From: Clostridia bacterium
GTDB lineage: Bacteria; Bacillota; Clostridia; Christensenellales; UBA3700
DNA length: 46,115 nucleotides
Assembly: GCA_016287155.1 (NCBI GenBank)
Contig: JAEEWC010000051.1
Coordinates: forward strand, 1 to 46,115
Direction: 5' to 3'
The position numbers and the translations under genes are program-made. The notes under the pieces are model-generated. The model was not told the DNA's origin and made no database searches. It saw nothing but the letters and a program-made list of their open reading frames with translations. The stretch's first letter is position 1. Every line of letters starts with the position of its first letter. Shown here one piece after another: positions 13,308-37,971 of the stretch.

Positions 13308-13314
13308 TTATTCC

Positions 13315-21936: not shown

Positions 21937-21944
21937 TATTCCTA

Positions 21945-23894
21945 CTATTTTATCAGTTTTTCAACTGCTTGTCTTATATATGATTTATAATCTATTTTAG
22001 ATAATTCTGAGGCATGTTCAAGTACTCTAACTACCTTGCCTTCTTCAATGTTTTCTTTAGATCTATAATAGATAACATTATCTTCAGCTCTACGCCAAAT
22101 TTTCAAAACTTTATTATTTGTAGTTGCAACATTACAACAGTTGCAAATATATTCATCTTCACTACCTGGGACCTTTATTGCATATGACTTATCTGAGTCA
22201 AAGAAATAATCTCCTCCGCAAGATTTACAAGTCTTTATATTTGAAGCTAATGTAATCTTTATATAATCAGCTGGGACATTTACAATTGCCCCTAATTCTT
22301 CTTTAAAACTCTCTAAGCAACCATATTCAACATAATCTTCTTTGAAATCATCATACTTTCCACTTGCATCTTCTAGCACGCCAAAGATAAAGTTGAATAA
22401 TTTATTCTCATCTCTATCGCCTTTACCATTTATTAACTTATCTCTATTTTTTCTATCCAAATTGTTTACTAGATATTTATATGAATACTTTGCAAAATCT
22501 GCATCAGTCGCAATTTCTTCTCCGGTTAAGCAATTAATAAATGAATACCTCTTTGTATCCCCTTTACTTTGAGCGCCAGTTAAGAAGTGTGATATTACTC
22601 TATCTTGTCCATCTGGATACATCTCATCATGAATCCAGCTTAGATATTCTTTACAATCACAATAATTAACAGTATCCTCAACCGTTGTTATGTTTCTTAA
22701 GAAATCTTTTTTTGATTGAGTATCTCTATTTATTTCATAACCTTTATCCAATAGGCCCTTTTGTTGTTTACCATCGCCTTTAATGTAAATGCTCTTCAAA
22801 TGCCATTTTCCACATCTCTTGCATTGCTTCATGCATTCATTACAGCCAATCGGATATAAAAACTTATCTTTGCCAATGTTAATCTTCAATTCCTTGTCTA
22901 TATGCAATTTCATTGGCTCTTTATTATTTTGAGCATTCGCCTTTGAGTCATTCTTACAAATTGGACAAGTAAATGAATTCTGAATACTTTCTTCTTCCTT
23001 TGCAAAGAATGGAGAATAATAAGTGATATATTCAGCATCCAAAAATTCTGACTCGTCAGCTCTTGGATTCTTTTTCTTAAACTCAACTTTAATTGGAGTC
23101 TTTAAATACTTAATACAATAAACAGCTTGAACTGTAATACGTTCAATATTTGAATCTTTTAAATAATATGCCTCTAGCGCATCTTCTAGATTCTTTTTAA
23201 AGTTTGGATCATATTCTTCTGTTTCTTCTTCAAGAGGAACTTTTCTATTATCAGCATTCTTTAATTTTTCTTGGAACTTCTTTTCATCAACGCTATCAAC
23301 TACATTATATTTATATTCGTTTTCGCCAATGTAAGTAGCATATACTAAGATATTCTTTGGCTCATCGTTTTCGTTAATAGATCTAAAGATACAGCTACAT
23401 CTATATACATAGTCTGCGGCAGCTGATTCTCCAGATATAATACTTACTTTAATTGAACCAATCTCTGGATCATTTTTATCTATAATGCTATCTGATATTG
23501 CTGATTCAATAGAATCTCTTGTATCATCGGCGATATTATCTAATTGAAGGTTTACTTCTTGCTTAAAGAAAGCAACTTCAGAATAGGCTTCCTCAAGTAG
23601 AACCTTTTTGTTACGTTCATTATCGATAATATCCCAACCATCAGAATCCTTTGCGCTATTAATACTATTGTAGAAGAAATAATTATACTTTTGAGCTTCG
23701 CCTTCTACTGGCTTATCGATTGAGTTATTTGTATTTAGGTTAGTATCAACAACTACATATTTTTTATCCTTAATTAATATTGCTGTACTATTTTCTTGTG
23801 GAAGATAATTTGGGATAGCAACCCCAGGACTTCTCTTTTCAGAATTGATAGTCTTTAATAGCTCGGCAATTTCAACTAAACTTGCATTATTCAT
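21945..23894 (-). CDS. Cys-rich hypothetical protein, probable multi-Zn-finger (649 aa)
   Basis: CPIC, CNEC, CKRC..WH, CDC, CKSC and CNCC clusters. Start moved to ATG 23894 (GGAGG SD 8 nt upstream, 8-nt overlap with the helicase stop). Confidence 0.75.
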   Translation of the reverse strand: MNNASLVEIAELLKTINSEKRSPGVAIPNYLPQENSTAILIKDKKYVVVDTNLNTNNSIDKPVEGEAQKYNYFFYNSINSAKDSDGWDIIDNERNKKVLLEEAYSEVAFFKQEVNLQLDNIADDTRDSIESAISDSIIDKNDPEIGSIKVSIISGESAAADYVYRCSCIFRSINENDEPKNILVYATYIGENEYKYNVVDSVDEKKFQEKLKNADNRKVPLEEETEEYDPNFKKNLEDALEAYYLKDSNIERITVQAVYCIKYLKTPIKVEFKKKNPRADESEFLDAEYITYYSPFFAKEEESIQNSFTCPICKNDSKANAQNNKEPMKLHIDKELKINIGKDKFLYPIGCNECMKQCKRCGKWHLKSIYIKGDGKQQKGLLDKGYEINRDTQSKKDFLRNITTVEDTVNYCDCKEYLSWIHDEMYPDGQDRVISHFLTGAQSKGDTKRYSFINCLTGEEIATDADFAKYSYKYLVNNLDRKNRDKLINGKGDRDENKLFNFIFGVLEDASGKYDDFKEDYVEYGCLESFKEELGAIVNVPADYIKITLASNIKTCKSCGGDYFFDSDKSYAIKVPGSEDEYICNCCNVATTNNKVLKIWRRAEDNVIYYRSKENIEEGKVVRVLEHASELSKIDYKSYIRQAVEKLIK

Positions 23895-26800
23895 TCTCAT
23901 CGCCTCCGCTAATAATCTTACTGAAGTCCTCAACTGTTAATTGTGATACAAACTTTGTCATATTATCTGCGTTGTTTCTAACAACTGAGCAGAAATATTC
24001 AAATAGATCAATAATAGGGGTCAACTTGTCTTTGATATGTTTTGTATATCTATTTAAAATCGGATTTGTAATATCTTGAATCTTACTTATATTAAGATAC
24101 GATTCATTCTCCAACTTTTCCTTTTGGTTAGAAAACGCTTTTTTAGCTTTTTCTAATTCTGCCAATATTGTAGACATTTCGTCTGTGTTATTCTTTTGCT
24201 TACGCTTTGATGTTGTTGTAATTTGCACACCACCATCGTATTTTTCAATTTGCTCTTCTTTGTTATATTCAATTAATGCTTTCAAGAATGATATCATCTT
24301 TGTGTAATATAGATTGATTTGCTTAATAAATACATTGATATCATTTGTAGTGTCTTTTTCTTTAATGTTACTTTGACCAACTTTCTCAGAATATGATTCC
24401 GCTATTTCTCCTAATTCATTAAACAAAACCACATCATCTTTTGTCGATTGTATATTTGCTAATAATTTTTGGACTATTGGCTCGCCTTTCTTTAAAAACG
24501 CAAAATATTTAATTTCATCTTGTTTTTGCGCTTCTGAAATATCAAACAATTCCTTAATGCCATTAAAGTATTCCATCTCTTTAGAATCACTAGCAAAATT
24601 CTCTTTAAAGATTTCGCACTTATCTAATAGTTCTTTACCATAAGCATAGAAGTTAGTAGCATCATAATCATACAAACTCTTGTATACTTTATCTATAGAT
24701 ATCATGATATCTTCAAAAGTAGCAGAATTCTCATGTCTACCAATAGGCATAGATACAATACCTGTTGTATCGCCCTTCCAGCTTGAGAATAATTCCAATT
24801 CAAATGCTAAGAATTCAACAATAAATCCACTTAAATCATTCAATGGTGCGAACGAAATAATCTTTAGATTAGGTTGCTCTACTGCGCTTAATTTAACTCT
24901 ATCGATTCTTCCGATTCTTTGTTCCATTTTTAATGGACAATACTTAATATCAAAGTTAATTAATATATCAGAAGTTTGTAAATCAACGCCTTCTTCGTAT
25001 TTATTAGGTTCGACTACAATAATGCAATTTTTATTATCTGTATTGGCTTTTGATAGGTCTTTAATATCCTTTCCTATAGACCAAGCATCTTGAGGATGAC
25101 GTCTATTATATACGCACAATGGCCAATGCTTAAATCTTGCAAAGTAATCTTTTTCAAAGTCTTTATCTTCTTTGAATTTTGTTGCTTTAAGAGTATTGTT
25201 ATCAAATAGTGGCCCTAGGGTTTCTTTATAATTCTTTAGCCATAAATCGTAATCGCTTTCAATTCTTAGCCAATCTAAAATAGCATCATAATTATCTATC
25301 TCTTCATTCTTTTCAGAGAACAATAATACCTTGCCTTTTATCTTGTTATCTTCTGTTACCTTTTCATCTGTTATTAGTTGTAATAACATATGTAGTTTGA
25401 AGTTTGTATAAGAAATCTCGCCAACAGATTTAGAATAAAACTCTTCTCTCTCTCCAGATAATTGATCGTTAATCCAATTGTAGATTTCATAAGCGTGTTG
25501 CTTTGGAATGAATGCTGATCTAATTGCTTTTAAATTCTTTTCATGTTCAACTCTAGCTGCTTCAATTGATGTTGTATCATCTTGGCTAAGGTTATCCATA
25601 TTATTATCATATTCATCATTTTCTCTTTTAATCTCTTCGATTAATGGATTCTCAACCATCTTATTAAACAATGAATAAGTGTCATCTTTTTCTACTTCAA
25701 TTTCTTCTCTTACATCTTCAACGAATTGGTCAAATACTTCTTTTTGTGTAACGTGATCACTAAACAGGCTAGCCTCTTTTACGTCAAGGTGATGTTGCTT
25801 ATGTTTATTAATTCTATCCATAAGCATATTGCCAACAACAATATCAAAAATCTTATCGTTTCTCTTTATGAAATAAACAATACCATTTCGCTTACTCCAT
25901 AAAGGAAGATTTTGATAACTAGACACTTTATTACCTAAAGACTTACTGATGTAACTTGTGTGCTTATCATCTAAGCAATATGTTTGGTGCCTTGTTGATC
26001 TAATACCCATGCCTTGATACATCTTCTTCCATGTAACAACACCTTCTGGGTCTTTTACTAATTCACCAATAGATTTAATAATCTTTTCTTTACCATTCTT
26101 GTCGACTTTTTTATATTTATCTTCAAACTCATCTCTTGATTTATTGAAGCATACTTCATCGAACAATTCTTCATTAAAGAATCTTTCTTCTCTAATAAAA
26201 TTAATTGCCGCTTCATAAATTGCTTCTAGTTTTACTTGATTATAATCATTCTTCTTCATATAAGAGATGAAATCTTTATGATTTGCGAATTTCTCTTTGA
26301 ACAAGAATACATATTTTATAATGATGTCTTCATATGTATAGAAATTCAATGCATACTTTCTATAATCCGGTTTTCCTTCTCTAATGATTATATCTACTAA
26401 TTCTGAAATCATTGAATCATCTAAGTTATATAATGCCTTTCTTATCAAAGCATATGAATCTTTACTTTCTGTTAATAACTTCAAAAGATAGAAGTCAATC
26501 ATATCAGACTTAATTGGAGTAGCTGTCATAAAGATTTTTCTATAAGCTCTATTAGCTAAAGCGCTTACCTTTGGATACATACTATCTTTGTTTATAAAAT
26601 AGTAATCATCGAATAATGGGAATACGAAATAATCATTAAACACAGCCATATCAAAAGGCAATTTAACTTTGTCCGAGAATTCATTTCCTGCTAATGTTCT
26701 ATTATTCTCATTTCTTGTAATTGTCTTTGGCATTGGAAGCTTATAGCTTACATTAATATAATCATGTGCTTCATCTATAATTAGAGTTTCATATGACATA

Positions 26801-28056
26801 TCAATCAAGAAATCTATAACGCAATACCCTTTGTATTCAACATTTTCGATAGGATTCTTAGATAACACATCTCTATATTCAACACTAATTCTATGCTTTA
26901 AAAGAGGATATTTTGGATCATCTTTTTCAGTTACAACCTTACTTACAATTAATACAGCAAATAATCTCTTAACTTCACGTGCAATTCTTTTAAATATTGC
27001 ATTAATACTACTTTCATGAAGTGCCTTTTTTAGAGCCCCAATATTCTCTAGTAAATATATACCTCTTTTTCTCTTGATATAATCAAACTGTGTATAAATG
27101 CTATTCTTTAAAACATCGGCGTTAAACAGTGCATTAAATACACGCTCTGCATATTTGTCTTCATTGTCTTTAAATTTAATAATATCTAATGCTCTATCTA
27201 CGATGTAGTAATACTCCCCATCTTCATCAAAAAAATAATCATTGATACTTATACCATCTTCTAAGTCTAATTCTTTATGTATTGCTTTTACTGTCTCCAC
27301 AATAACTGGTCTTACTACTTCCATTAATATTTGATACTTTAAAGCATTATTGTTTGTGAATTTAAACTTATATGGGCTTGCCAATTCATGAATTTTCTCA
27401 ATCAATGTACTTTTATATTCTTTTAGGATACTGCTAATTACTTTTACAGATTTTGAAGTTACAGTATCATCAAGCGTTGGAATATCATCTTTTGACTTTC
27501 TACAAGAATCAAATGCTGAATAAAAAACTGCATATAAGTCATCCAAACTCTTAATTGCAAAAACTCTTGGCATTGTTTCTGGCATAGCTTGAACATTCTT
27601 CTTGCCCTTATCAATAGCAAATCTTTCATAGAAATTTCTAATACCGAATTTTCTAGCAAGTTCCTTCTGCCATTTCTCTGCCATATTTTCATTTGGAACT
27701 AAAATTAATAATGAATTTAATTCTTTCCTATAAGCAAGTTCGCTTATAATCATTCCAGCTTCGATAGTCTTTCCCATTCCTACTTGGTCTGACAAAATAC
27801 CACATTTACTGAAACGATATATGAAATCTTTTACGGCTTTGTTTTGGTATGAAAAAGCACTAGAGCCGGCTTCTCTCCATTCTCCAGAAATACCAAGGGA
27901 GATATAGTCTTCACTTTCAAGTTTTGCCTTTGGCTCTTCCTCTCCAGCTTTAATGACTTTATCTATTAACGCCCTTTTATTATCGCTTAGTTTTGAATTA
28001 TTGCTTCGAATAGATTTAATACTACTTTCGATGCTGTCATTCAAGATTATTTCCAT
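23887..28056 (-). CDS. SNF2/RapA-like SF2 helicase with large insertions
   Basis: ILSDQVGMGKTIEAG (I), LILVP (Ia), LIIDEAH (II), TATP (III), KVLLFSE (IV), EGVDLQ..INFD (V), EQRIGRIDR (VI). Confidence 0.9.
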   Translation of the reverse strand: MEIILNDSIESSIKSIRSNNSKLSDNKRALIDKVIKAGEEEPKAKLESEDYISLGISGEWREAGSSAFSYQNKAVKDFIYRFSKCGILSDQVGMGKTIEAGMIISELAYRKELNSLLILVPNENMAEKWQKELARKFGIRNFYERFAIDKGKKNVQAMPETMPRVFAIKSLDDLYAVFYSAFDSCRKSKDDIPTLDDTVTSKSVKVISSILKEYKSTLIEKIHELASPYKFKFTNNNALKYQILMEVVRPVIVETVKAIHKELDLEDGISINDYFFDEDGEYYYIVDRALDIIKFKDNEDKYAERVFNALFNADVLKNSIYTQFDYIKRKRGIYLLENIGALKKALHESSINAIFKRIAREVKRLFAVLIVSKVVTEKDDPKYPLLKHRISVEYRDVLSKNPIENVEYKGYCVIDFLIDMSYETLIIDEAHDYINVSYKLPMPKTITRNENNRTLAGNEFSDKVKLPFDMAVFNDYFVFPLFDDYYFINKDSMYPKVSALANRAYRKIFMTATPIKSDMIDFYLLKLLTESKDSYALIRKALYNLDDSMISELVDIIIREGKPDYRKYALNFYTYEDIIIKYVFLFKEKFANHKDFISYMKKNDYNQVKLEAIYEAAINFIREERFFNEELFDEVCFNKSRDEFEDKYKKVDKNGKEKIIKSIGELVKDPEGVVTWKKMYQGMGIRSTRHQTYCLDDKHTSYISKSLGNKVSSYQNLPLWSKRNGIVYFIKRNDKIFDIVVGNMLMDRINKHKQHHLDVKEASLFSDHVTQKEVFDQFVEDVREEIEVEKDDTYSLFNKMVENPLIEEIKRENDEYDNNMDNLSQDDTTSIEAARVEHEKNLKAIRSAFIPKQHAYEIYNWINDQLSGEREEFYSKSVGEISYTNFKLHMLLQLITDEKVTEDNKIKGKVLLFSEKNEEIDNYDAILDWLRIESDYDLWLKNYKETLGPLFDNNTLKATKFKEDKDFEKDYFARFKHWPLCVYNRRHPQDAWSIGKDIKDLSKANTDNKNCIIVVEPNKYEEGVDLQTSDILINFDIKYCPLKMEQRIGRIDRVKLSAVEQPNLKIISFAPLNDLSGFIVEFLAFELELFSSWKGDTTGIVSMPIGRHENSATFEDIMISIDKVYKSLYDYDATNFYAYGKELLDKCEIFKENFASDSKEMEYFNGIKELFDISEAQKQDEIKYFAFLKKGEPIVQKLLANIQSTKDDVVLFNELGEIAESYSEKVGQSNIKEKDTTNDINVFIKQINLYYTKMISFLKALIEYNKEEQIEKYDGGVQITTTSKRKQKNNTDEMSTILAELEKAKKAFSNQKEKLENESYLNISKIQDITNPILNRYTKHIKDKLTPIIDLFEYFCSVVRNNADNMTKFVSQLTVEDFSKIISGGDENE

Positions 28057-28069
28057 ACCTTATATATCC

Positions 28070-29932
28070 TTAATCTCTAAATCTTACCCACATTGCAGGC
28101 CTTACGCCTAATTTAAACACAGAAGATGCTCTATTTAAACAACCATACTGGTCTATACATTTCACTTCGTCTTTACCGCTTGAATCTGGACTTCTCAGCC
28201 ACCACCATTGAGCATTCTCTTTATCAAAATCAATGCTTTGTGGCAAGCCTTCTTCTTCAAATGCGATTCTACTGCCTTCAAATGACAAATATACTTCTAC
28301 CTCATTCTCGCTTAACAAGAAAATCTTATCGTATGTGTTTTCACATAAATATTTATTTGCTTTTTTCGTATATAAAGAATCTCTTGAATTGTCTACTTCC
28401 ATCTCAACAATTTGACTTTGCTCATCTTTATCAAAGCTATTCAATAAGAAGCTATGATTTAACCAATAATGCAAATTCGAATGGCTGTAGTTATTATCTT
28501 CGCGTTCATCATATTGGAATTGCTCAATAATCTTATCGCATATAACTAGTGACAATCCGTCTTTCTTATAAAGTGTTTTCCAATATAATTCTTTATTTCT
28601 ATAATTGCCTAATGGTCTTTTTTCACCTAGCCCTATATATATTTTTTGTTCTTCTTCTGAAATGTCATCAAACAAGAAATAATATTCTTGTCTAATTCTA
28701 TTTTTATCTTTTGTCAATCTCATAAGATTCTTCTTGATTGACATTATTTCATCATTTCTTTCTTGCTTGCCCTTTAATTTCGCTTTTAAATAATATTCCC
28801 ATAAAACCGCATCTTTTGGATAAATATCAAGTTGTTCATCGATAACTTGGATTGCCTTTTCGTATGATTTTCTATATTCTAGTAACCCTTCTATTTGATC
28901 TAGTTTTTGATAATAATCTTGAGAACGCGAATCTCTTTTTGTAACGACAATTGGGTTGTTTCTTATATTACGTGCTTCTATGATAGCAGCGCTAATTAAT
29001 TTTGCTAAGTCTTTATAATTATCTTTTTCAAAGCCATCAATCCAGTTTCTACCATCAGTAAACACTTTGGTTTCTGGGTCTGGTTCAACATTATCTAATC
29101 TATAAGTGATTCTTATTGCTTTTGGATTATGTTTTAAAACGTGACGAATTTCTTCATTACAATCTTTACTCTCTAAAGAGTCTTTTGACATTAGATATAA
29201 AAATACTGGGCAATGCTCTATGGCTGGCTTAATTCTTTCCCAATATAAACTCTTATCTGTTGATGCCTTTTCTAAGTTACGCTCACTATACCAACATAAA
29301 ATGTCGTTGTATTTTGTTTCAATATAATCAGCGATTTCTTTTGCCTTATTCTTTTCTCTACTGCTAAAGCAAATAAATACTTTTTTATCGTAGTAGATGT
29401 ATTTATTCTTTTCGATTTCTCTTGCTCTAAATGCAGCATCTAGTTTTTCTTTATAGCTATTGTATACACCTTGAGCCATAAAGAATTTTTCAATAGCAAC
29501 TCTTACCTCAATATCTGGGAATAATAAAAGTAATGTTGCTATTTCTTTTACTTCATCTAAAGTCAAAATAGTATCTGATAAATTTGCTAGAGTTCTTTCG
29601 TATGCTTGATAGTTATTCGTTAATTTATAATCAGATAATGCATATACAAAATTTGCAAAAGCATTTTCAGGATCATATCCTTTAATTTGAGTAGTAATGA
29701 CCTTTAGGTTATCGAAGTCAATTAAGTCGCTATGCTTTCTATTTAATGCGTCCTTGATAGTTTTCTTGAAGTTATCAATTTGCTCTTTCTTTAATTTCTC
29801 TGCGCCTTCTTTTATCTTTGCATATTCATCAACAGTTAAATGCGCACCACAAACTTCACATACATAGAATGTATCTCTAAAAATTAGACTCGATTCGCCA
29901 CATCTTGGACATTTAACTACTTCTAGTTTCAT
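28070..29932 (-). CDS. Zn-ribbon + helical + TIR + helical + DUF6273-like protein
   Basis: CPRC..CEVC N-terminus. TIR: KVFICFSS..., CWYSERNL, AIEHCPVFLYLMS..SLES.DCNEEI. C-terminal domain with SNLHYWLN, DKIFLLS..EV, WWWLRSP and GVRPAMW. Confidence 0.85.
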   Translation of the reverse strand: MKLEVVKCPRCGESSLIFRDTFYVCEVCGAHLTVDEYAKIKEGAEKLKKEQIDNFKKTIKDALNRKHSDLIDFDNLKVITTQIKGYDPENAFANFVYALSDYKLTNNYQAYERTLANLSDTILTLDEVKEIATLLLLFPDIEVRVAIEKFFMAQGVYNSYKEKLDAAFRAREIEKNKYIYYDKKVFICFSSREKNKAKEIADYIETKYNDILCWYSERNLEKASTDKSLYWERIKPAIEHCPVFLYLMSKDSLESKDCNEEIRHVLKHNPKAIRITYRLDNVEPDPETKVFTDGRNWIDGFEKDNYKDLAKLISAAIIEARNIRNNPIVVTKRDSRSQDYYQKLDQIEGLLEYRKSYEKAIQVIDEQLDIYPKDAVLWEYYLKAKLKGKQERNDEIMSIKKNLMRLTKDKNRIRQEYYFLFDDISEEEQKIYIGLGEKRPLGNYRNKELYWKTLYKKDGLSLVICDKIIEQFQYDEREDNNYSHSNLHYWLNHSFLLNSFDKDEQSQIVEMEVDNSRDSLYTKKANKYLCENTYDKIFLLSENEVEVYLSFEGSRIAFEEEGLPQSIDFDKENAQWWWLRSPDSSGKDEVKCIDQYGCLNRASSVFKLGVRPAMWVRFRD

Positions 29933-29944
29933 AAACCCTCTAAA

Positions 29945-31117
29945 CTACGCTTCCATAAACCATGCATCTGGATCTGGATTTGTATCTATCCCTTCTAGCC
30001 CTTCTAAATCACAAACTTTGATTGTAGATAATTCTTCATCAGTTGGATCTTGTATTTCTGAAACGCGGATAGATTGATTTTGCACAATTGTTTCAAACAA
30101 GTTTCTAACATCACGTGCATTGCCAAAATTCTTATCTCTATTTTCGTATTTATTATTTAAATAATTAACCATTAAATCTTCTGCGTCAGGTTCAAGAATA
30201 AACTGACTCTTACTACACATGCGTTTAAATATATTAAACATTTCTTGGCCTGTATAATCTTCGAAGTTAATGTATGTTTTAAATCTTGATCTTAAGCCTG
30301 GATTTGAATCGATGAAATCTTTCATTAATTCATTATACCCAGCAACGATTACAACTAATTCGTTTCTATGATCTTCCATCGCCTTTAGAATAGTATCTAT
30401 TGCTTCTTGTCCAAAATCACGTCCACCATTACCATTTAATGTATAGGCTTCATCAATAAACAAAACGCCACCTAGAGCCTCTTCTATTCGCTTTGCTGTC
30501 TTTTCTGCTGTTTGGCCAACATAACCTGCAACCAACTTTGATCTATCTACTTCAACTAATTGTCCCGTCTCAACTATATCTAAAGCAGCATAAATTTTGC
30601 CCATCAAACGAGCAACTGTAGTTTTTCCTGTTCCTGGATTTCCAGTAAATACCATATGATAAGACATATCTGGAACCGGTAATCCTCTTTCTTTCTTTAC
30701 CTTAAATACTTTAATTTGTTTTACAAATGCATTGACTTGTTGCTTTACTACATTCAAGCCCTCAAGACTATTCAATTCTGCTAAAACTTCATCTAAGTTT
30801 GGCTTAACAACTGGCTTTGATTTAGGCTCCTCTTTAGTACGTGTATTCTTAGGTTCAATTGGAGGATTAGATGGAACTGGTTTTGCACAGCCTATTTTAA
30901 ATCTACAAAACTCCAACTTCTTCTCGAGTTTATCAAAATTGCTCTTCATTAAAGCAACTTTTTTCAAGTCAGAAGAAGTACTTGCAATGGACTTACAAAG
31001 ATCCATTGCTTGTTCTATTGATTGTATTGCTGAAGTATAATCCCCAGCAGTCATTTCTATATCTATCCTCTTATTTAGTCGGATAAATTGGTCTTCCATA
31101 GCATATGCTGCCATCAT
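29945..31117 (-). CDS. CbbX/SpoVK-family AAA+ ATPase with MIT-like N-terminal helical bundle
   Basis: HMVFTGNPGTGKT, LVAGYVGQTA, GGVLFIDEAY, DFGQEAID, NPGLRSRF, FGNARDVRN. N-terminal ~75 aa helical (AGDYTSAIQSIEQAMDL) followed by a Pro/Lys-rich linker. Confidence 0.9.
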   Translation of the reverse strand: MMAAYAMEDQFIRLNKRIDIEMTAGDYTSAIQSIEQAMDLCKSIASTSSDLKKVALMKSNFDKLEKKLEFCRFKIGCAKPVPSNPPIEPKNTRTKEEPKSKPVVKPNLDEVLAELNSLEGLNVVKQQVNAFVKQIKVFKVKKERGLPVPDMSYHMVFTGNPGTGKTTVARLMGKIYAALDIVETGQLVEVDRSKLVAGYVGQTAEKTAKRIEEALGGVLFIDEAYTLNGNGGRDFGQEAIDTILKAMEDHRNELVVIVAGYNELMKDFIDSNPGLRSRFKTYINFEDYTGQEMFNIFKRMCSKSQFILEPDAEDLMVNYLNNKYENRDKNFGNARDVRNLFETIVQNQSIRVSEIQDPTDEELSTIKVCDLEGLEGIDTNPDPDAWFMEA

Positions 31118-31690
31118 TTACCCCCAATTACTAACGTCAGCCAAGCCTGCTGCTTCAGTTGTATCTTTATCAGCTTGTTCTATTTCATCTTCAATTTGTT
31201 TTGCTAATTCTTCATCTATCTCTTGGTTCGTAGAAGAATCAACTTTATTGATTGATGCATTTACTGAGCTAAACATAGTATCCATCTTCTCAAACTTCTT
31301 TGAGAACTTATTATTAAATGACTTTAATTCGCCTAAAATACCTTTAACTTCTGAAGACATATTCACTTTTCCAACTTCTTTCATGACTTCGCCTATAGTT
31401 TTATATAGGTCCATTTTCATAAAAGCTTCATCAATCATAAATTTAAATTGTTCTAACTTGTTTAGGATTTCTGTTGTCTTATGTCTAAAGATTAATTGTT
31501 GTCTTAAAGTTTCCATTAATCTTTTAACTTCTAAATTATCCCCTTGTTTTTTAGATAAAGTGATTTTTTGTTTTAGTGCATCAATTTTTTCATCATATAT
31601 TGAAATATGATTATTGATAGAATCACTTACCATATCAAACTTAACATCTATTTGAACCTTATTTGGAGTTTTATTCTTCTTATCAAACAT
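31118..31690 (-). CDS. Snf7/ESCRT-III-like coiled-coil protein (putative)
   Basis: 190 aa, all-helical pattern. Helical-hairpin turn SKKQGDNLEVKRL, Met-rich middle, acidic tail EIDEELAKQIEDEIE; its stop abuts the ATPase start. Confidence 0.6.
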   Translation of the reverse strand: MFDKKNKTPNKVQIDVKFDMVSDSINNHISIYDEKIDALKQKITLSKKQGDNLEVKRLMETLRQQLIFRHKTTEILNKLEQFKFMIDEAFMKMDLYKTIGEVMKEVGKVNMSSEVKGILGELKSFNNKFSKKFEKMDTMFSSVNASINKVDSSTNQEIDEELAKQIEDEIEQADKDTTEAAGLADVSNWG

Positions 31691-31701
31691 AATATTCCCT
31701 C

Positions 31702-32616
31702 TTATATCTCCATGTTTTGAACGTCAATTCCGCTACTTTGATTTGTAACAGTTGTTACATCGCTAACTTCTAAACCTTGATTTCTTACAGTAGTGTTTGC
31801 TTCTTCAAGTTTTCCAGCCATTTTTGTAACTTGCTTTTGCTTTGTATTTTGAACCATTGTATCTTCTAATACTTTACCGAATTGATCAACAATTTCATCA
31901 GGCAAATATGTTTCTTGATTTCTTTCAATGTTTGAAACAAGTGTTGTGTAATTTGCAATTTGCAAATCTAAAGCATCTTGCTTCTTTTGTAATTCATCTT
32001 TTTCTGCTTTGATTTGAAGCATTTGCTTTCCAATAATTTCTTGTTGTGCTTTGCCTAAAGATAGAGCTTCTTCTTTAAGTTGTGTAAATGTTTCAACTTT
32101 CAATTTGATTTGGTTGTTAATATTCTCTCTATTAACTTTAAATGTCATTAAATCAAGTTTGTTCTTTAGATAATTTCTATCTTCATAATATTTGTATGTA
32201 ACCATACTTCTTTGATTAGCAAAGTGGTCAATTTCATTAATAGCTGAAGATATACCATAGAAGTTTTCTTGATTGCAATATAAAACTAATTGCTCTACAT
32301 ACTTTAAGATAAAACCATCAATAGCATAAACTGCTCTTGCGTTTTGATCTACAGAACCTGTTTTAATATTTTGCATAATAGCTCTAACACGATCTGCTTG
32401 TTCATAATATTTAGTTTGAGAAATCTTGTTATATGCTATATTTAGACTATTCAATATTTCATGCTTTTGCTTTTCAATATCGTAAATAGCTCTTCTCTTT
32501 GCTCTATTCTCTTCACGAGACAATTCTCTATCATCAGTCTTTTTGATTTCAACACCAAAAATTCCATTCATTTCTTCTTTTGTTACAGGCTTTTCTTTCT
32601 TTTTGAACCATAGCAT
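31702..32616 (-). CDS. Helical/coiled-coil hypothetical protein (304 aa)
   Basis: MLWFKKK N-terminus, long heptad region at aa ~150-275, strong GGAGG SD. Confidence 0.75.
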   Translation of the reverse strand: MLWFKKKEKPVTKEEMNGIFGVEIKKTDDRELSREENRAKRRAIYDIEKQKHEILNSLNIAYNKISQTKYYEQADRVRAIMQNIKTGSVDQNARAVYAIDGFILKYVEQLVLYCNQENFYGISSAINEIDHFANQRSMVTYKYYEDRNYLKNKLDLMTFKVNRENINNQIKLKVETFTQLKEEALSLGKAQQEIIGKQMLQIKAEKDELQKKQDALDLQIANYTTLVSNIERNQETYLPDEIVDQFGKVLEDTMVQNTKQKQVTKMAGKLEEANTTVRNQGLEVSDVTTVTNQSSGIDVQNMEI

Positions 32617-32629
32617 AATTTAATTCCTC

Positions 32630-33568
32630 CTATTGTTTAGTTCCACATACTGAGCAAAATGCTGCACTCTTTGGAAGCTTAGCACCACAATTTGGGCAGT
32701 ACTTATCTGTAATATTTATTGGGGCTTTTGCATTTCCGTTTGTTGTTAATGTTGTGTCTACGACTTTTTCTTCAAATTGCGAACGATTTATTCTTGCCAA
32801 ATCTAATTCATGTTGAAGTGCTTTATCTTGTTCAGCTTGTCTTCTAGCATATTCCTTTTCATCTTTTTGACCTTCTAAATCATCTATTGCATATTTATTA
32901 ATAATATCTAAAACTTTTGTAATTGTTTCATCTGTTTCATCAACAGTATTTACGTGCATAGCAATAGAGTTTGGTTGAAGAGTTAATCCAATTTTTGATA
33001 AAACTCCTAATGTTTTTCTTGAACCCTTGAAAACGTCTTTAGCAACTTCACCTAATTTTGCATGCAAATCATTTTCTGTTGTTTCTGGAGTAATTATTTT
33101 CTTTATAGCATCTGAAATTTCATCGCCTAACATTTGTCTATATTTAGTATTAATTTCAGCTTGCAAATCAGCCTTTGTAAGAGTTTTATCGAAAGCTTCT
33201 ATTAGTAATTCATAATCAGTTACCATTACTTCAATAGAACCAACAACTGCGAATTTTAATTTTGCAGCAGGTAAATAACTCAAAGCGCATGTATGTTGAC
33301 CGGCGAAGAATTTAATCAAGATTGTATTAAACATCTTATCTGGGTATAGATAGCAATCTACAACATCCTTTCTATTTCCGCCTAGCATATCTGCATCTAA
33401 GTGATACGCATTTGGGCTTCCTTGATACTTCATTCCGCCAACAAATGCAACAGATCCACTCTTAACATATAGATCTATGTCTGACTTTTTTAGTTTAATT
33501 TCTGTTTTTTCAACAAGCACATCTTTGCTTGATAGACCAACTTTAATGCTTTGTGTAAATAAACCCAT
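32630..33568 (-). CDS. SPFH/Band-7-like protein with C-terminal Zn ribbon (putative)
   Basis: MGLF start, beta-rich head, GSIEVMVTDYELL..AF followed by helices and GLTL, a charged coiled coil, and terminal CPNCG..C..CG. Confidence 0.55.
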   Translation of the reverse strand: MGLFTQSIKVGLSSKDVLVEKTEIKLKKSDIDLYVKSGSVAFVGGMKYQGSPNAYHLDADMLGGNRKDVVDCYLYPDKMFNTILIKFFAGQHTCALSYLPAAKLKFAVVGSIEVMVTDYELLIEAFDKTLTKADLQAEINTKYRQMLGDEISDAIKKIITPETTENDLHAKLGEVAKDVFKGSRKTLGVLSKIGLTLQPNSIAMHVNTVDETDETITKVLDIINKYAIDDLEGQKDEKEYARRQAEQDKALQHELDLARINRSQFEEKVVDTTLTTNGNAKAPINITDKYCPNCGAKLPKSAAFCSVCGTKQ

Positions 33569-33570
33569 AA

Positions 33571-33933
33571 TTATATATTCTCCTTTTTGTCACATAATGA
33601 AACTTTTTTTCCGCATACCGGGCAATATTGTACCCCTTTAGGAAGTCTTTCTCCACATTGTTTACATTTCACAATTGCACCTAAATCTTCAGCTTCATAC
33701 ATATCCTCAGCTTCTACATTTGAAGATTTATAATTTTTCCCCGTAATTAAATAATCTAAAGAAACATCTAAAGCTTCAGCTAAAGTAGATAAGATACTAA
33801 AATCTGGATTCCCATCATTTTGCTCCCACTTGCTTACGGCTCTATCCGTAACATTCAATTTTTCGGCTAACTGTAATTGAGTAAGATTTAATTCTTTTCT
33901 TCGTTTTTTTATACGATCCCCTATTGTTATCAC
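33571..33933 (-). CDS. XRE-family HTH regulator fused to a Zn ribbon
   Basis: IGDRIKKRRKELNLTQLQLAEKLNVTDRAVSKWE..G.PD...LAEALDVSLDYLITG plus CKQCG..CPVCG. GTG start at 33933 with AGGAG SD. Confidence 0.9.
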   Translation of the reverse strand: MITIGDRIKKRRKELNLTQLQLAEKLNVTDRAVSKWEQNDGNPDFSILSTLAEALDVSLDYLITGKNYKSSNVEAEDMYEAEDLGAIVKCKQCGERLPKGVQYCPVCGKKVSLCDKKENI

Positions 33934-33990
33934 AATAAATCTCCTTATTTGCATTAATACTTCACCGTTCTCAAAGGTAGCATTTTAGCA

Positions 33991-34183: not shown

Positions 34184-34897
34184 CTATTTCTTATTTAGAA
34201 TAAATGTACACTTTGGATAATTAGAACACCCTAAGAATTTTCCATATTTCCCTTCTCTCTCCACAAGCTTACCTCCACATCTTGGGCATATACCTTTCTC
34301 TAATTCTTTTTGTGTTTGTTTAATAATCCTAACATGTTCTTTATTTGATATTTTACTTGATGCATTCATCAATTTTTCATAAATTTCATCCATTTCTTCA
34401 GTTGAAAGATATGTACCATCATCAAATTTTTTCAAATAATATTTCAAATCATCAAGATTAACAACATTATCGCAATCAATTTTGTCCGCATTATTCTGTA
34501 CCATTACAACAAGAGAATTTACATGATATTTTTTGCCTATCACATTGCTAATATGATATACATGCGACTTGTTTTGCTTTAGCGGGTTAGTTAATTGATT
34601 CTTTTCTCCGTTAAATAAAACTTGAACCCACTTATCTTGGAATTCATTACCCAAAATCCATCCTATATAATTCTTTGTTTCTATGCAGAAAATACCATTA
34701 TGTCTTATTTCGATATGATCTATTTGATGAGTTTTATTATTACTATCTACAAGGATTAAATTATCTATATATCTATGTTCAACCTTACCAAACAAAATAG
34801 GATTCAATTTCTTATCTACTTTAGCTTCTCCAATTTTGCCCTTTTGCATATTGATTAAATCTTTCTTATATTCATTTATTATTTTAATTAGTCCCAT
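34184..34897 (-). CDS. NERD nuclease-domain protein with topoisomerase-type C4 Zn ribbon
   Basis: GKIGE, HQIDHI...GIFCIETKNY.G, NPLKQN..H; C-terminal CPRCGGKLV.R.GKYGKFLGCSNYPKC. Confidence 0.9.
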   Translation of the reverse strand: MGLIKIINEYKKDLINMQKGKIGEAKVDKKLNPILFGKVEHRYIDNLILVDSNNKTHQIDHIEIRHNGIFCIETKNYIGWILGNEFQDKWVQVLFNGEKNQLTNPLKQNKSHVYHISNVIGKKYHVNSLVVMVQNNADKIDCDNVVNLDDLKYYLKKFDDGTYLSTEEMDEIYEKLMNASSKISNKEHVRIIKQTQKELEKGICPRCGGKLVEREGKYGKFLGCSNYPKCTFILNKK

Positions 34898-34955
34898 AAT
34901 TCACCTATTACATTAATGTAACACTTTGCGTATAACTTTCATTTATTCATCCTAA

Positions 34956-35888
34956 TTATAGAGGAAAAACCGAATAACCAGAATCTCCAATTTTTAATGC
35001 AATGTTAGTCATTTCAACAACCTGATTTACTATATATCTAACATTGCTTTCTTGACTTTCAAAAGATTGAGTAAAGTTCACTTTTTTATCATCTGGCAAA
35101 TAATACTTAAGCATTAAGCCGCCACTAGTTGAGTCTTCAAAATGATAATCAGTAATATCTACATTTATCTCTTTAAAAACTTCTATAACTTCATTTCTAC
35201 GTCTTGCCATTTTTGAAAACTGGAAATCAATTGTATTTTGATCAGACTTATAGCACACTCCAAGCCCACTGACATTTGTTCCAAATTCTGGCCATAAAGC
35301 TGAACTGCCTCTTGATTTCTTTACACGATTAAACTTTAAGAAATTATAATCTATGTTTATTAAATCAATTAAACTATCCCAAAACGCGGTAACTTCCTTG
35401 TTCTCAATAGTATTACTGCGCTTTCTTACATTACACGATGCTTTAAACACTTCTCTGTCTAGGGAATCAACACATAATTTTTCTAAATCATTGTGAGATA
35501 TCCTCAAATCGTATTTTTCATTTGTTTTATAATCATTTGGGGCACATAAAACAACGAAGTGCTTTTCGAATCCCTCTTCGACTTTCAACAATTCAGCCCT
35601 TTTATCATATCTATCTCTTTGTTGAGGTTGAGCATCGGCGTTAATTTTGTCTTCAACAAATATGGCAAACTTTTTGCCATCATCTTTTTGAAAAATAAAA
35701 ACTATATCTGACTCCCCATATTTGCCTGGCTCTTCTTCTTGGACTAAAGAATGAAACGTTTTAACTAATTGCCCTGACATATTTACTTTATCAAAAAATA
35801 GTTCTTGCACAAATTTAGATTTTTGCATTTCTCTCATTATTGCAAAATCCGTATCTCTTTCTTCAATATAAGCCAATTTGTATTCCAT
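34956..35888 (-). CDS. PD-(D/E)xK superfamily nuclease
   Basis: EERDTD, GESDIVF, IFVEDKINA..QPQQ..RY. Start moved to ATG 35888 (GAGGG SD). Confidence 0.75.
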   Translation of the reverse strand: MEYKLAYIEERDTDFAIMREMQKSKFVQELFFDKVNMSGQLVKTFHSLVQEEEPGKYGESDIVFIFQKDDGKKFAIFVEDKINADAQPQQRDRYDKRAELLKVEEGFEKHFVVLCAPNDYKTNEKYDLRISHNDLEKLCVDSLDREVFKASCNVRKRSNTIENKEVTAFWDSLIDLINIDYNFLKFNRVKKSRGSSALWPEFGTNVSGLGVCYKSDQNTIDFQFSKMARRRNEVIEVFKEINVDITDYHFEDSTSGGLMLKYYLPDDKKVNFTQSFESQESNVRYIVNQVVEMTNIALKIGDSGYSVFPL

Positions 35889-36089
35889 TCTAATCCCTCT
35901 CAAAACCTCACATAATTTTACCAATTCATATTATACAACACATAACTATAAGCTATACAAAATATAATAAATATTAGTGTTTAATTCTCTCGTGGCCCGC
36001 CACAGGTAAGTTATACGAACCCTAAAATTAGTAGTTGGTTATTGACCAAAAACATCCTAGGAAAACGTATAACAATTACCAGAAAATAG

Positions 36090-36126
36090 AAAATATGGCA
36101 ATACTATGTATTGCCACTTTTCTTTT
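36090..36126. terminator. Probable bidirectional intrinsic terminator
   Basis: Perfect 9-bp stem TGGCAATAC-tat-GTATTGCCA (36096-36116) with T-rich tails on both strands; downstream of the 118-aa gene. Confidence 0.7.
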
Positions 36127-36158
36127 ATAACTCTCTCAAATATAAACTTGAACAATTA

Positions 36159-36515
36159 TTACCATCGTGTATGAGTTAAATGCCACATCCCGCAATTAGA
36201 ACACTTATAAACATACAAAGTAACTCCTTTTTCTTCTTTTATAATGTCAGCTCTTCTTCGAGCATCTGCCTCTGTTGGATATTTATCTTTATAATGTCCA
36301 CTAGAATCTAGGCATGTGCTTCTTTCGTTGTGTGTATTTCTATCGGCTCTTCCTAAATGAAAATACCCACATTTATTACATTGATATGGCTCTAACTTAA
36401 AATTAAATCTTGAATATCTATTTTGATAATTTGCGGCATCTCTCGCTTCCTTTATATTTTGATATGAAGTTAAAGGGCCGTTTTGTCCTGTACAAGTATT
36501 ACTTTTAAAACTCAT
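36159..36515 (-). CDS. Small protein made of two tandem C...CxxC-xxx-H Zn-finger-like units
   Basis: C..Y....EAR.AA...YQCNKCGYFHL and C..Y....DARRRA...YKCSNCGMWHL. Confidence 0.75.
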   Translation of the reverse strand: MSFKSNTCTGQNGPLTSYQNIKEARDAANYQNRYSRFNFKLEPYQCNKCGYFHLGRADRNTHNERSTCLDSSGHYKDKYPTEADARRRADIIKEEKGVTLYVYKCSNCGMWHLTHTRW

Positions 36516-36537
36516 ATTAATGCACTCTTACCCTTTA

Positions 36538-37623
36538 TTAATCATCAAAATAAGTGTCATAATAGTCATCGTCATCATCATAATCGTAATTATCATCTTC
36601 ATCAGACTCGACATCATAATCCATTAAATACAAAAGCATTTCATATGCTGATGCCTTTTGAGCTTCTTTTTTCTTACTATCGTTATTAATAAATGATTCG
36701 TCTACGCCATCTATAGATATTTCACATGACCATACTTGATTCCCATTATCATCATATTCTTGATTGTATTCATAATTTGGCTTATTAATTAAACCTTTTT
36801 GAACCAATTCATTAATTTGACGTAGAGATTCTTCATAGCTAGGTTCTCCTACAGCTTCTTCAAACTCGTTAGTTATATATCCTTCATCTTGCAATTTGCA
36901 ATACATGTCTTCTGCTGCAACCATTCTCGCCTTTGCTTTACTTTTGCCTTCACCATAGCCCTCATAATTACAATCATCTAACTCAACTCTAACTATGCAA
37001 CTATATCCATCATATCTTTCATCGTATTTATACTCAGGTAATTCGTATCCACTTTTTTGGCACCATGTTTGAAGTAAGCCAACATAATTTTCATCTTCAT
37101 CGTCTTCGCCATTAAAATAAGCATCAAAATCAATCATTGTTTTTACAACGTCTGTAATGGTGTCCATATCATAATTGCAATCAACAGTTACCGCACCAAC
37201 AATTGCTTCAAATAAATCTTCTTTAACGGAATCTTGGTCTTGGATATTCTGACTTATATCACCTTTTCCCATAATCAATTCTGTATTAAATCCCAATCGA
37301 TCCATACATTGTGCTAAAGCTTTCTTTTGAACCAAATCTTTTTTGATATCAGTAAACTTACCTTCTGAATACTTTGTCTTAAAATAACTTGGATTTGTTA
37401 ATTTAAATTCTTGCCATTGTTTATCAACAGTAATGCGGCCAAATCTTTCCATCATTATTCTAATGACTGCTAGATCAAGCGCTTTATCGCCAATAAATTC
37501 TAGGACTTCGTTGTTTTGTCCACCTTTTTCTTCTGAATAACTTCTTCTTACAAATGCTTGTTGAAGTAAATCACCATTTGAAAATGTGTACCCAATTGTG
37601 TTTTCAATTTTGCTAACATTCAT
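36538..37623 (-). CDS. Ribonuclease III-family protein with two dsRBDs and an acidic tail
   Basis: NNEVLEFIGD signature and EDLFEAIVGA. dsRBD1 LLQTWCQK...P.Y...GEGKSKAKARMVAA; dsRBD2 ...KP.Y...SKKKEAQKASA. Start at ATG 37623 (GGAGG SD). Confidence 0.88.
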   Translation of the reverse strand: MNVSKIENTIGYTFSNGDLLQQAFVRRSYSEEKGGQNNEVLEFIGDKALDLAVIRIMMERFGRITVDKQWQEFKLTNPSYFKTKYSEGKFTDIKKDLVQKKALAQCMDRLGFNTELIMGKGDISQNIQDQDSVKEDLFEAIVGAVTVDCNYDMDTITDVVKTMIDFDAYFNGEDDEDENYVGLLQTWCQKSGYELPEYKYDERYDGYSCIVRVELDDCNYEGYGEGKSKAKARMVAAEDMYCKLQDEGYITNEFEEAVGEPSYEESLRQINELVQKGLINKPNYEYNQEYDDNGNQVWSCEISIDGVDESFINNDSKKKEAQKASAYEMLLYLMDYDVESDEDDNYDYDDDDDYYDTYFDD

Positions 37624-37661
37624 AGTTAGATCCTCCAAAAAATTATTTGCATTGGAGAAAT

Positions 37662-37719
37662 AAAAAAATTAGACACAATGAAGCCACTCTCCCTATGAGC
37701 TTACCGTTAATGTCTAATT
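37662..37719 (-). promoter_or_regulatory. Long leader hairpin with U-tract upstream of the RNase III gene
   Basis: AATTAGACAT...AAGC...GCTT...GTGTCTAATT followed by TTTTT. Confidence 0.55.
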
Positions 37720-37841
37720 AATCAAATATTAAATATAAATCAAGTTTATTTATTAATTGTCTCTTTCAAAACTTTTAACAAATACCATTGTTTTATAGTC
37801 AGCATTTAAATAATTGACATTTATTTCTCTATGCTGACTGA

Positions 37842-37850
37842 ATTATAACA
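37842..37850 (-). promoter_or_regulatory. Extended -10 promoter for the RNase III unit
   Basis: TGtTATAAT, followed by a 9-bp inverted repeat AGTCAGCAT/ATGCTGACT (37797-37839). Confidence 0.5.
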
Positions 37851-37971
37851 CATCAATTCTATTTTTGTCTATAAGAGCTTTATTATCTTATGTCTTTCCC
37901 TATTAACGCGAATTTGCCAAATAAAAAAGCAAATATAATCAGAAAAAATGATAGTTCTGCGTTATAAGCAC

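Follow-up and report, generated by a model that had tools for sequence, protein, structure and literature searches.

A CbbX-type ATPase with an MIT-like N-terminal domain, the probable motor of a rare bacterial ESCRT-III-type cassette

Introduction

What is the function of a bacterial AAA+ ATPase that is laid out like Vps4 and encoded next to an ESCRT-III-like protein, but whose motor belongs to a different family? This question is raised by a gene on the minus strand (29945 to 31117) of contig JAEEWC010000051.1 from a Clostridia bacterium of the order Christensenellales (GenBank assembly GCA_016287155.1), of which positions 1 to 46,115 were analysed and are referred to in their entirety as the window. 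The encoded protein of 390 amino acids probably powers a rare ESCRT-III-type cassette of bacteria, in which it would act in the manner of Vps4, being recruited to the tail of a Snf7-like protein and pulling subunits out of the polymer.

In the sections of PMC7619361 drawn on here, a Vps4-like ATPase 'appears absent in bacteria', and the corresponding sections of PMC10936438 confine the genes for Vps4 and ESCRT-III to archaea and eukaryotes, leaving bacteria with just the PspA type; they also describe archaeal ESCRT loci with proteins composed of an SPFH domain, a coiled coil and a zinc ribbon. A survey from 2024 (PMC11237479) reports, in the part used here, transfers of Vps4-like genes to bacteria with snf7 displaced, as well as PspA or Snf7 beside a double-AAA+ protein. 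We found no published description of a Snf7 plus MIT-AAA cassette in Bacillota, although the supplements of that survey (Text S2.2, Table S3), which lay outside our search, may list such neighbourhoods; in the same search no description was found of an MIT-like domain on an ATPase of the CbbX/SpoVK type.

Results

The ATPase and its AAA+ module

The gene and the parts of its product are as follows.

29945..31117, minus strand: open reading frame of the ATPase, 390 amino acids, ATG start
30890..31117, minus strand: N-terminal domain (N-domain), residues 1-76, predicted three-helix bundle of MIT-like fold (AlphaFold2, fold search)
30797..30889, minus strand: linker rich in Pro and Lys, residues 77-107, predicted to be disordered, variable (predicted local distance difference test score, pLDDT, 28-29; alignment)
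29993..30796, minus strand: single AAA+ module, residues 108-375, assigned to the SpoVK-EccA-CbbX clade (Pfam, solved structures, NCBIfam, motifs)
29945..29992, minus strand: C-terminal tail, residues 376-390, and stop codon (alignment)

The reading frame is not a product of chance, since it has orthologues at 50-76% identity. A near-identical database twin (100% identity) of 389 amino acids starts at the second Met.

The assignment of the AAA+ module is consistent across four kinds of evidence. Pfam detects AAA_lid_6 (PF17866, E 3.3e-19, residues 310-371) and AAA (E 1.1e-17, residues 155-286). The closest solved structures are CbbX (3zuh/3syk, E 3e-53, residues 109-368) and EccA1 (9lur, E 1.5e-49), after which the next match in the structural database is ClpC at about 1e-7. 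Among the NCBIfam models the protein matches SpoVK (3.2e-83), EccA (6e-75) and CbbX (2.3e-66), while remaining under every equivalog cut-off (278.8 against 422.95 bits for SpoVK, 252.9 against 466.65 for EccA and 224 against 459.25 for CbbX). The Walker A motif (GNPGTGKT), the Walker B residues (DE) and a pore loop with a tyrosine (G-Y199-V-G) are all intact.

The traits that define the clade in the portion of PMC11513918 relied on here are a GY sensor-1 signature, an asparagine four residues before the first arginine finger and a retained sensor-2 arginine, and all three are found in the ATPase. The sensor-1 signature A259-G260-Y261 is invariant in the four CbbX-type sequences that were aligned. 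In the stretch N272-P-G-L-R276-S-R278 both N272 and R278 are invariant in the same four sequences, whereas R276 is replaced by lysine in one relative and by glutamate in another. The sensor-2 arginine (the second arginine finger), in G-N-A-R335, is kept in all four. Because the traits of the clade are present and the equivalog scores lie below their cut-offs, the ATPase is, as judged from its sequence, a member of the SpoVK-EccA-CbbX clade but not SpoVK, CbbX or EccA themselves. Membership of Vps4/CdvC would call for a classical AAA module of the 'meiotic' type with its second region of homology, and the module here is of the CbbX type; the CdvC model gave no match to it at E ≤ 0.01. A preliminary description of the locus, made from the sequence alone, had placed the motor with CbbX, SpoVK and EccA and outside the Vps4 clade, and this placement is borne out.

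CbbX, the activase of red-type Rubisco, shares about 40% identity with the module together with the position of the pore-loop tyrosine, the AGY, NPG-R-S-R and GNAR motifs and the AAA_lid_6 domain. The match begins about 15-25 residues from the N-terminus of CbbX, which therefore has no counterpart of the N-domain and linker, and the window cassette lacks any Rubisco context. EccA, of type VII secretion, and SpoVK belong to the same clade and likewise combine a conserved motor with an N-terminal domain that varies and recruits the client (PMC11513918, in the portion relied on). This domain is a TPR array with a beta-helix in EccA and a small beta/alpha domain in SpoVK, as against the single MIT-like bundle of the present ATPase, and no sporulation or type VII secretion genes were seen among the scanned genes of the window.

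The N-terminal domain

An AlphaFold2 model, calculated from an alignment of three sequences, has helices at residues 2-23, 27-47 and 51-74, matching a three-helix pattern that had been noticed in the translated sequence. The pLDDT of the domain, in blocks of 10 residues, is 64/84/86/90/82/75/88, and it falls to about 28 over residues 77-103. Among the three closest homologues, residues 1-75 and the ATPase part from about residue 108 are conserved while the stretch between them varies in length and sequence; the Pro/Lys linker that was noted at the outset is supported by both the alignment and the model. The remainder of the ATPase is modelled poorly (whole-model pLDDT 53, predicted template modelling score 0.29).

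The model of the N-domain was compared with 48,161 representative solved chains using VIA-align, a search that is independent of Foldseek. The top matches include the MIT-bearing proteins MITD1, SKD1/VPS4A/Vps4, katanin p60, LIP5/Vta1, ULK3, USP8, NRBF2 and spastin, and the best of them are single MIT domains spanning the whole domain rather than TPR arrays. As in MIT domains, the predicted bundle is asymmetric, has three helices and is about 75 residues long. Our reading is that the modelled fold is MIT-like, MIT being itself a TPR-like bundle, and that the likeness is one of structure, sequence searches having given no match to MIT. Eight residues are invariant across 12 N-domain sequences. 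The domain is rare: a word search of an index of 5.8 billion proteins found it in only three proteins, namely the twin (100%) and two relatives that are 58-59% identical in the N-domain.

The neighbouring ESCRT-III-like protein

Directly upstream of the ATPase lies the gene for the putative polymer subunit.

31118..31690, minus strand: 190-amino-acid protein of the ESCRT-III/Snf7 superfamily ('E3a'), with the terminal tail ...SNWG (Snf7 profile, Vps24 match, charge)

Its TAA stop codon is immediately followed by the ATG of the ATPase gene, which has a GGGGG run close by on its upstream side. The protein has 18 relatives among 1.84 billion representatives. A profile of the family, built from 14 relatives, matched yeast Vps24 (6zh3_B) with an E-value of 2.3e-07 over almost its full length (profile positions 9-185, chain residues 17-198); CHMP1B was second (E 0.011-0.018) and the rows that followed, at E ≥ 0.03, were unrelated. 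The Pfam Snf7 model matched 5 of the 14 members at E ≤ 0.1, the best at 2.2e-05. The distribution of charge is also that of an ESCRT-III protein of the Vps4/CdvC systems, with a basic N-terminus, an acidic C-terminus and a short motif at the end: by quarter the net charge is +3, 0, +3 and -10, and the ranges recorded are +3 to +5 (first quarter) and -7 to -10 (last quarter). Since the best matches are Vps24 and CHMP1B and the PspA model reaches only E 0.0089, these comparisons place the protein in the ESCRT-III/Snf7 superfamily, as a member of Snf7 type and not of PspA type.

Related loci

Relatives of the locus were sought with an alignment of five sequences, the 14-sequence alignment of the 190-residue family being too diverse for this purpose. 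In species-representative genomes 64 pattern matches were obtained, of which 13 were confirmed as loci, and in metagenomes five of 81 matches were confirmed. The 13 are all in metagenome-assembled genomes (MAGs) from gut or rumen, labelled Clostridia, Coproplasma, Oscillospiraceae, Faecousia, Staphylococcaceae and Acholeplasmatales. The family was found in none of 60 related genomes and in none of 400 genomes sampled from the phylum. The window protein had no relative in phage or plasmid records by tblastn, nor, as a single query, in the search of genome contigs, and viral contigs gave no relatives with two queries (the window protein and P0005).

The same gene order recurs, running from a SPFH-zinc-ribbon protein through a protein of 304 amino acids and the ESCRT-III protein to the ATPase with its N-domain. 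The ATPase lies directly 3' of the ESCRT-III gene in 17 of the 18 related loci. In the exception, L013, a 385-residue Macro-domain protein (L013:585-1742) takes its position, with VWA and DUF2779 proteins after it. The genes for the SPFH-zinc-ribbon protein (312 amino acids in the window) and for the 304-residue protein lie 5' of the ESCRT-III gene in all loci whose upstream sequence is long enough to tell; the former was found in 12 related loci, in one of them as a fragment only, and the latter is conserved in the cassette of the related loci.

Most related loci are larger than the one in the window. They have a trypsin-like protease gene upstream and, downstream, a second Snf7 protein, a second classical AAA ATPase and a RuvB-like or further AAA ATPase, with the full cluster of at least eight genes seen among L003-L008, L011, L014, L015, L023 and L024. 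The second Snf7 protein of L015 scores over the Pfam cut-off (31.4 bits), and the second classical AAA ATPase resembles VAT, Cdc48-D2 and Vps4 and is matched by the CdvC model. Variable large proteins, TPR-TIR-LRR, LRR_5 and Sel1 types among them, come next in these larger loci. The window has neither the second Snf7/AAA module nor the RuvB-like ATPase or the protease, and the second module was not found in its genome, which is 83% complete, with the second Snf7 protein of L015 (Snf7b) as query.

Exchange of the motor and the tail motifs

In 11 related loci (L003-L012 and L014) a homologous N-domain is joined to a classical AAA domain. A further locus, L021, belongs with them by its 190-residue protein and N-domain, its ATPase gene being cut off after 188 amino acids. 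The classical type was checked by Pfam in six loci and assigned by alignment or BLAST in the remainder. These sister ATPases match PF00004 at 1e-30 to 1e-33 and lack AAA_lid_6, have ATN at the place of the AGY signature and find their best solved relatives in Cdc48/p97 (E about 1e-27 in a single-domain alignment) and VPS4B (9e-29); the FtsH, CDC48, PAN and CdvC models of NCBIfam match them. The CbbX-type motor is confined to the clade of the window, which comprises the window itself, two database proteins and L015 (Acholeplasmatales), L022, L023, L024 and L025, of which L022 and L023 are near-identical metagenome copies of L015.

The N-domains of the two groups are homologous, as a hidden Markov model made from ten classical-type N-domains matches residues 1-76 of the window ATPase at E 1.8e-12 in a nominal space of a million sequences. 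Compared with its classical-type sisters, the window protein is 28-40% identical in the N-domain and only 17-22% in the ATPase, whereas against L015, which has the same type of motor, the values are 46% and 55%. The motor also has a stand-alone relative (49% identity), encoded by a genome from this order; the N-terminus of that ATPase is unrelated, and its surroundings contain none of the cassette genes. On the trees of the 312-residue protein, the 190-residue protein and the N-domain, which are unrooted, the type of motor maps as a single change (support 96/100, 100/100 and 100/99, respectively). The homologous N-domains, the contrast in identity, the stand-alone relative and the single change on the trees together point to one exchange of the motor module inside an existing ESCRT-III/AAA cassette, for which the unrooted trees set no direction. 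It had been proposed that a different unfoldase family was recruited independently. The idea of a different family having been recruited is strengthened by the sister cassettes, in which a homologous N-domain is joined to a classical AAA domain, but the event is better described as a motor-module exchange than as an independent recruitment.

The ends of the cassette proteins differ between the two clades. The 190-residue protein ends in ...DLF(K/N)L(D/N) in the classical clade and in ...(S/A)NW(G) in the CbbX clade (within 31118-31160 in the window), and the 304-residue protein in ...DD(L/F)Fx(M/F/L) and ...xM(E/T)I, respectively (within 31702-31740). The tails of the two proteins read ...SNWG and ...NMEI in the window, as against ...DLFNLKK and ...DDLFKM in the classical-type locus L004. 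The second Snf7 protein ends in ...(E/D)DFFxx(I/L)N in both clades. Short hydrophobic motifs with acidic flanks at the C-termini of polymer subunits are what a docking model of either the MIT type or the pore type would lead one to expect, and the switching of the tail motifs along with the motor, although a single event, argues for a physical coupling, be it of the tail to the N-domain or to the ATPase. The ATPase has a tail motif of its own, D-x-D-x-W-F (29948-29992), in which D382, D384, W386 and F387 are invariant in the three closest homologues; it was not found in L015 or in the classical-type sisters by alignment.

The remaining cassette proteins and their surroundings

The other genes of the cassette and the two that follow it are listed from upstream to downstream.

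33571..33954, minus strand: 127 amino acids, helix-turn-helix (HTH) protein of XRE/Cro type with a C-terminal zinc ribbon (Pfam HTH_3 E 9.3e-18, Zn_Ribbon_1 E 1.7e-06)
32630..33568, minus strand: 312 amino acids, divergent SPFH/Band_7_1-like protein with a coiled coil and a C-terminal zinc ribbon, an architecture like that of YdjI (Pfam zinc ribbon E 2.9e-08, hhalign)
31702..32616, minus strand: 304 amino acids, conserved protein with a basic N-terminus, a coiled-coil middle, an acidic C-terminal tail and a short hydrophobic motif at the end
28070..29932, minus strand: 620 amino acids, zinc ribbon-TIR-DUF6273 protein (Pfam TIR_2 E 4.7e-13, DUF6273 E 1.9e-27, Zn_Ribbon_TF E 4.8e-05)
23887..28056, minus strand: 1389 amino acids, SNF2-family helicase like DrmD/DpdE (Pfam SNF2-rel_dom and Helicase_C; PADLOC DrmD E 3.9e-23, DpdE E 4.4e-19)

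The HTH-zinc-ribbon protein, encoded by the first cassette gene in the window and in the position where the related loci have the trypsin-like protease, is likely to be a regulator. In the 312-residue protein Pfam detects the zinc ribbon alone, its Band_7_1 model giving no match. The SPFH assignment began as a lead from a language-model atlas, in which the protein falls with clusters of Band_7_1 plus zinc ribbon (score 0.93, 192 of 256 features), and was supported by hhalign of the family profile against a Band_7_1-zinc-ribbon alignment (Prob 96.7%, E 3.7e-10, 121 columns, residues 66-199); the latter has ten rows, drawn from ten genomes within this order, and in one row the reading frame was wrongly picked. 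The 304-residue protein has no family match in Pfam or the atlas, a profile search of the PDB gave generic coiled coils only (E ≥ 0.02) and hhalign against three ESCRT-III-like families gave a Prob of 1.7-7.8%. It was considered as a second ESCRT-III protein and rejected on these tests, so that of the two upstream proteins which the preliminary description took to be ESCRT-III-like, only the 190-residue one holds up.

One bovine-gut metatranscriptome run contained a contig of 161 nucleotides on the 304-residue gene (31900-32060, 0 differences), one of 221 nucleotides on the 312-residue gene (33171-33391, 3 differences) and a piece of 33 nucleotides. These contigs are weak evidence, indicating neither transcription nor its absence, as DNA carry-over is possible. 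A scan of the window for promoters and terminators was uninformative, with 40 promoter-like sites against 46.7 expected.

The window has a G+C content of about 31%, and nearly every long reading frame is on the minus strand. Between 33954 and 28070 adjacent genes lie 0-13 bases apart, the stop codon of the HTH gene lying 3 bases from the 312-residue gene and the TIR gene 12 bases downstream of the ATPase gene. The TIR protein, which also matches the ThsB-like model of PADLOC (E 4.3e-06), is a candidate effector or sensor of the island. TIR proteins flank the cassette also in L006 and L008, and were confirmed in those two related loci only. The SNF2 helicase gene was not seen adjoining the cassette in the related loci, and its link to the cassette is uncertain. 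Downstream of it (6567-23933) are three very large genes, separated by 7-8-base gaps or overlapping, for proteins of 662 and 2873 amino acids, which have no Pfam match, and for a BspA-type LRR protein of 2246 amino acids. Proteins of the LRR_5 type are likewise found beside the cassette in L006, L008, L012 and L024. On the other side, past a gap of 229 bases upstream of the HTH gene (34184-41475), are genes for a NERD protein with a topoisomerase zinc finger, a PD-(D/E)XK-like protein, an RNase III-like protein with a double-stranded RNA-binding domain, a DUF7226 protein, a Dam-type methylase and a DndB-like protein of 743 amino acids. Housekeeping genes (dihydroorotase-like, NAD-dependent DNA ligase, PcrA/UvrD helicase and aldo-keto reductase) occupy one end of the window. 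The cassette thus sits in a chromosomal island of conflict-type genes.

A second operon in the same genome

A second ESCRT-like operon is found in this genome beside ftsZ, on the minus strand of contig C6 (L038:1-4014) and continued on C51 (L016:1180-2262). Its order is FtsZ, a Band_7_1-zinc-ribbon protein (252 amino acids), proteins of 117, 208 and 195 amino acids with N-termini of the MGLF type, and an ATPase, the first 172 residues of which are collinear with residues 13-183 of yeast Vps4 (5uie_A, E 1.1e-15) and with VPS4B, the MIT region included. The 195-residue family is related to the 190-residue family of the window (hhalign Prob 92.8%, E 4.1e-07), and the protein is present in 5 of 6 genomes from this genus, 1 of 30 others from the family and 1 of 24 from the order. 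The possibility that the N-domain of the window ATPase is a close copy of this Vps4-like MIT domain was considered and rejected, as BLASTP did not align the two.

Discussion

The proposal that the 390-residue protein is the motor of an ESCRT-III-type cassette starts from its domain architecture, the similarity in fold, the family assignments, the conserved adjacency of the genes, the module exchange and the co-switching of the tails, all of which were observed. In order of the genes, the cassette would consist of a regulator, a SPFH-zinc-ribbon scaffold, an adaptor (the 304-residue protein), the Snf7-like polymer subunit and the ATPase. The 190-residue protein may form a polymer at the membrane, alongside the scaffold, onto which the MIT-like bundle would dock the enzyme by way of the flexible Pro/Lys linker. 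The docking site would probably be the acidic C-terminal tail of the 190-residue protein with the motif at its end, and the tail of the 304-residue protein may contribute. Docking by the N-domain is in keeping with the dedicated chaperones of this ATPase clade, whose variable N-domains are described as recruiting the client (PMC11513918, in the portion relied on), and the putative SPFH-zinc-ribbon partner has parallels in PspA with YdjI and in the archaeal ESCRT loci (PMC10936438, in the sections drawn on). A hexameric ring of the CbbX type could then pull on the tail with the tyrosine of its pore loop, extracting or remodelling subunits. The analogy for this step is Vps4 acting on ESCRT-III; CbbX acts by pulling the C-terminal tail of its client Rubisco.

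The ATPase resembles Vps4/CdvC in its overall layout, as these too have an N-terminal three-helix MIT domain of about 75 residues, a disordered linker and one AAA+ module, and a gene placed beside that of a Snf7-type protein. The differences are the clade of the AAA+ module, the purely structural nature of the likeness to MIT, the bacterial host and the location in an accessory island. The sister cassettes (L003-L012, L014 and L021, from Clostridia, Oscillospiraceae and Coproplasma MAGs) share the gene order and homologous SPFH-zinc-ribbon, 304-residue, ESCRT-III and N-domain components, and differ in their classical AAA domain (like Cdc48, FtsH, PAN and Vps4), their pore loop, their tail motifs and, mostly, in having the extra second module.

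Several results weigh against the proposal. The model of the N-domain was built on three sequences only. Pfam MIT matched none of 12 members of the N-domain family, even at E ≤ 10, and a profile search of PDB sequences returned no MIT sequence and only consensus-TPR designs, by way of one GDYxxA...A..L motif; nor does the domain give a BLASTP alignment to the true Vps4-like N-terminus encoded in the same genome. The MIT-like character that had been suggested for this region therefore holds for the fold and not for the sequence. The 190-residue protein of the window, taken alone, is under the Pfam Snf7 cut-off (17.4 against 27.3 bits, E 0.0038). The pore loop of the classical-type sisters (L003-L014), (C/S)KVG, lacks an aromatic residue, which is unusual for a threading motor. 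The co-switching of tail and motor is weak as statistics because it happened once in evolution, between two clades, and the tail switched though the N-domain was conserved and only the ATPase module changed, so that the tail may meet the ATPase instead. Finally, no PADLOC model matches the cassette beyond weak matches to the ATPase, and a defence role is argued from the neighbourhood.

The alternative that survives best, although we consider it unlikely, is that the ATPase is a dedicated chaperone of the SpoVK/EccA type, that its N-domain is one more TPR-like client adaptor and that the client is not an ESCRT-III-like polymer but, for instance, the 304-residue, the SPFH-zinc-ribbon or the zinc ribbon-TIR-DUF6273 protein, which would be assembled or activated with no filament being taken apart. 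The portion of PMC11513918 relied on here describes the clade as narrow chaperones with variable N-terminal recruiting domains, TPRs in the case of EccA, and the sole sequence-level signal of the N-domain is indeed the TPR-like motif; the fold comparison goes the other way, its best matches being single MIT domains over the whole length and not TPR arrays. As to the client, the 304-residue protein likewise has a clade-specific C-terminal motif and the TIR gene follows that of the ATPase after 12 bases, but it is the ESCRT-III gene that the ATPase follows in 17 of 18 loci, TIR proteins having been confirmed in two. It also counts against a SpoVK/EccA-type chaperone that in most loci the same N-domain is carried by a classical AAA domain like that of Cdc48 or Vps4.

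It is very improbable that the cassette is an envelope-stress module in the style of PspA and YdjI, with the ATPase regulating or holding the ESCRT-III-like protein as PspF does PspA and with the island location incidental: in coupling an ESCRT-III-superfamily protein to a putative SPFH-zinc-ribbon protein it does mirror YdjI/PspA of B. subtilis (ydjFGHI; PMC10936438, in the sections drawn on), the AAA+ protein PspF does bind PspA (PMC7619361, in the sections drawn on) and an HTH gene heads the cassette, but the ATPase is a dedicated motor that has no DNA-binding domain and whose Walker A/B, arginine and Tyr pore-loop motifs are intact in the way typical of working translocases, its partner is of the Snf7 and not the PspA type (Vps24 and CHMP1B best, PspA model E 0.0089), and the cassette was found in none of the 60 related and 400 sampled phylum genomes and is set among NERD, PD-(D/E)XK, TIR, SNF2, Dam and DndB-like genes, a rarity and a neighbourhood more in keeping with an accessory element of conflict than with a stress system of the housekeeping kind.

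Returning to the cassette as an ESCRT-III polymer with its own motor, the role of the whole is the weakest step of the proposal. Most likely the cassette remodels or repairs membranes as part of a conflict (anti-phage) response, which we propose because it is located in a defence island with the zinc-ribbon-TIR gene directly downstream; the island context and the TIR proteins beside the cassette in L006 and L008 suggest such a role.

What is new here is the combination, in bacteria, of ESCRT-III with an adaptor-AAA motor, the engine of which appears to have been exchanged. We would suggest, tentatively, that bacteria of gut and rumen of the Bacillota and Acholeplasmatales-like kinds have genuine machines of ESCRT-III plus motor, in which the motor is modular, one MIT-like adaptor is carried by two AAA+ engines and the tails were re-tuned in the same step. 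If this is true, the statements in the literature that bacteria lack ESCRT machinery of the Vps4 type would need revising, and the window cassette would have branched off from a cellular ESCRT system of bacteria into a conflict island. Such a natural 'engine swap' would mean that what the system needs is the design of adaptor, linker and ring, and not a particular AAA+ lineage. Two homologous cassettes with different motors and tails would provide a test bed for the minimal needs of an ESCRT-III disassemblase. The finding would also widen the range of N-terminal client adaptors in the SpoVK-EccA-CbbX clade, and the TIR, LRR and helicase neighbours raise the possibility that membrane remodelling takes part in bacterial immunity.

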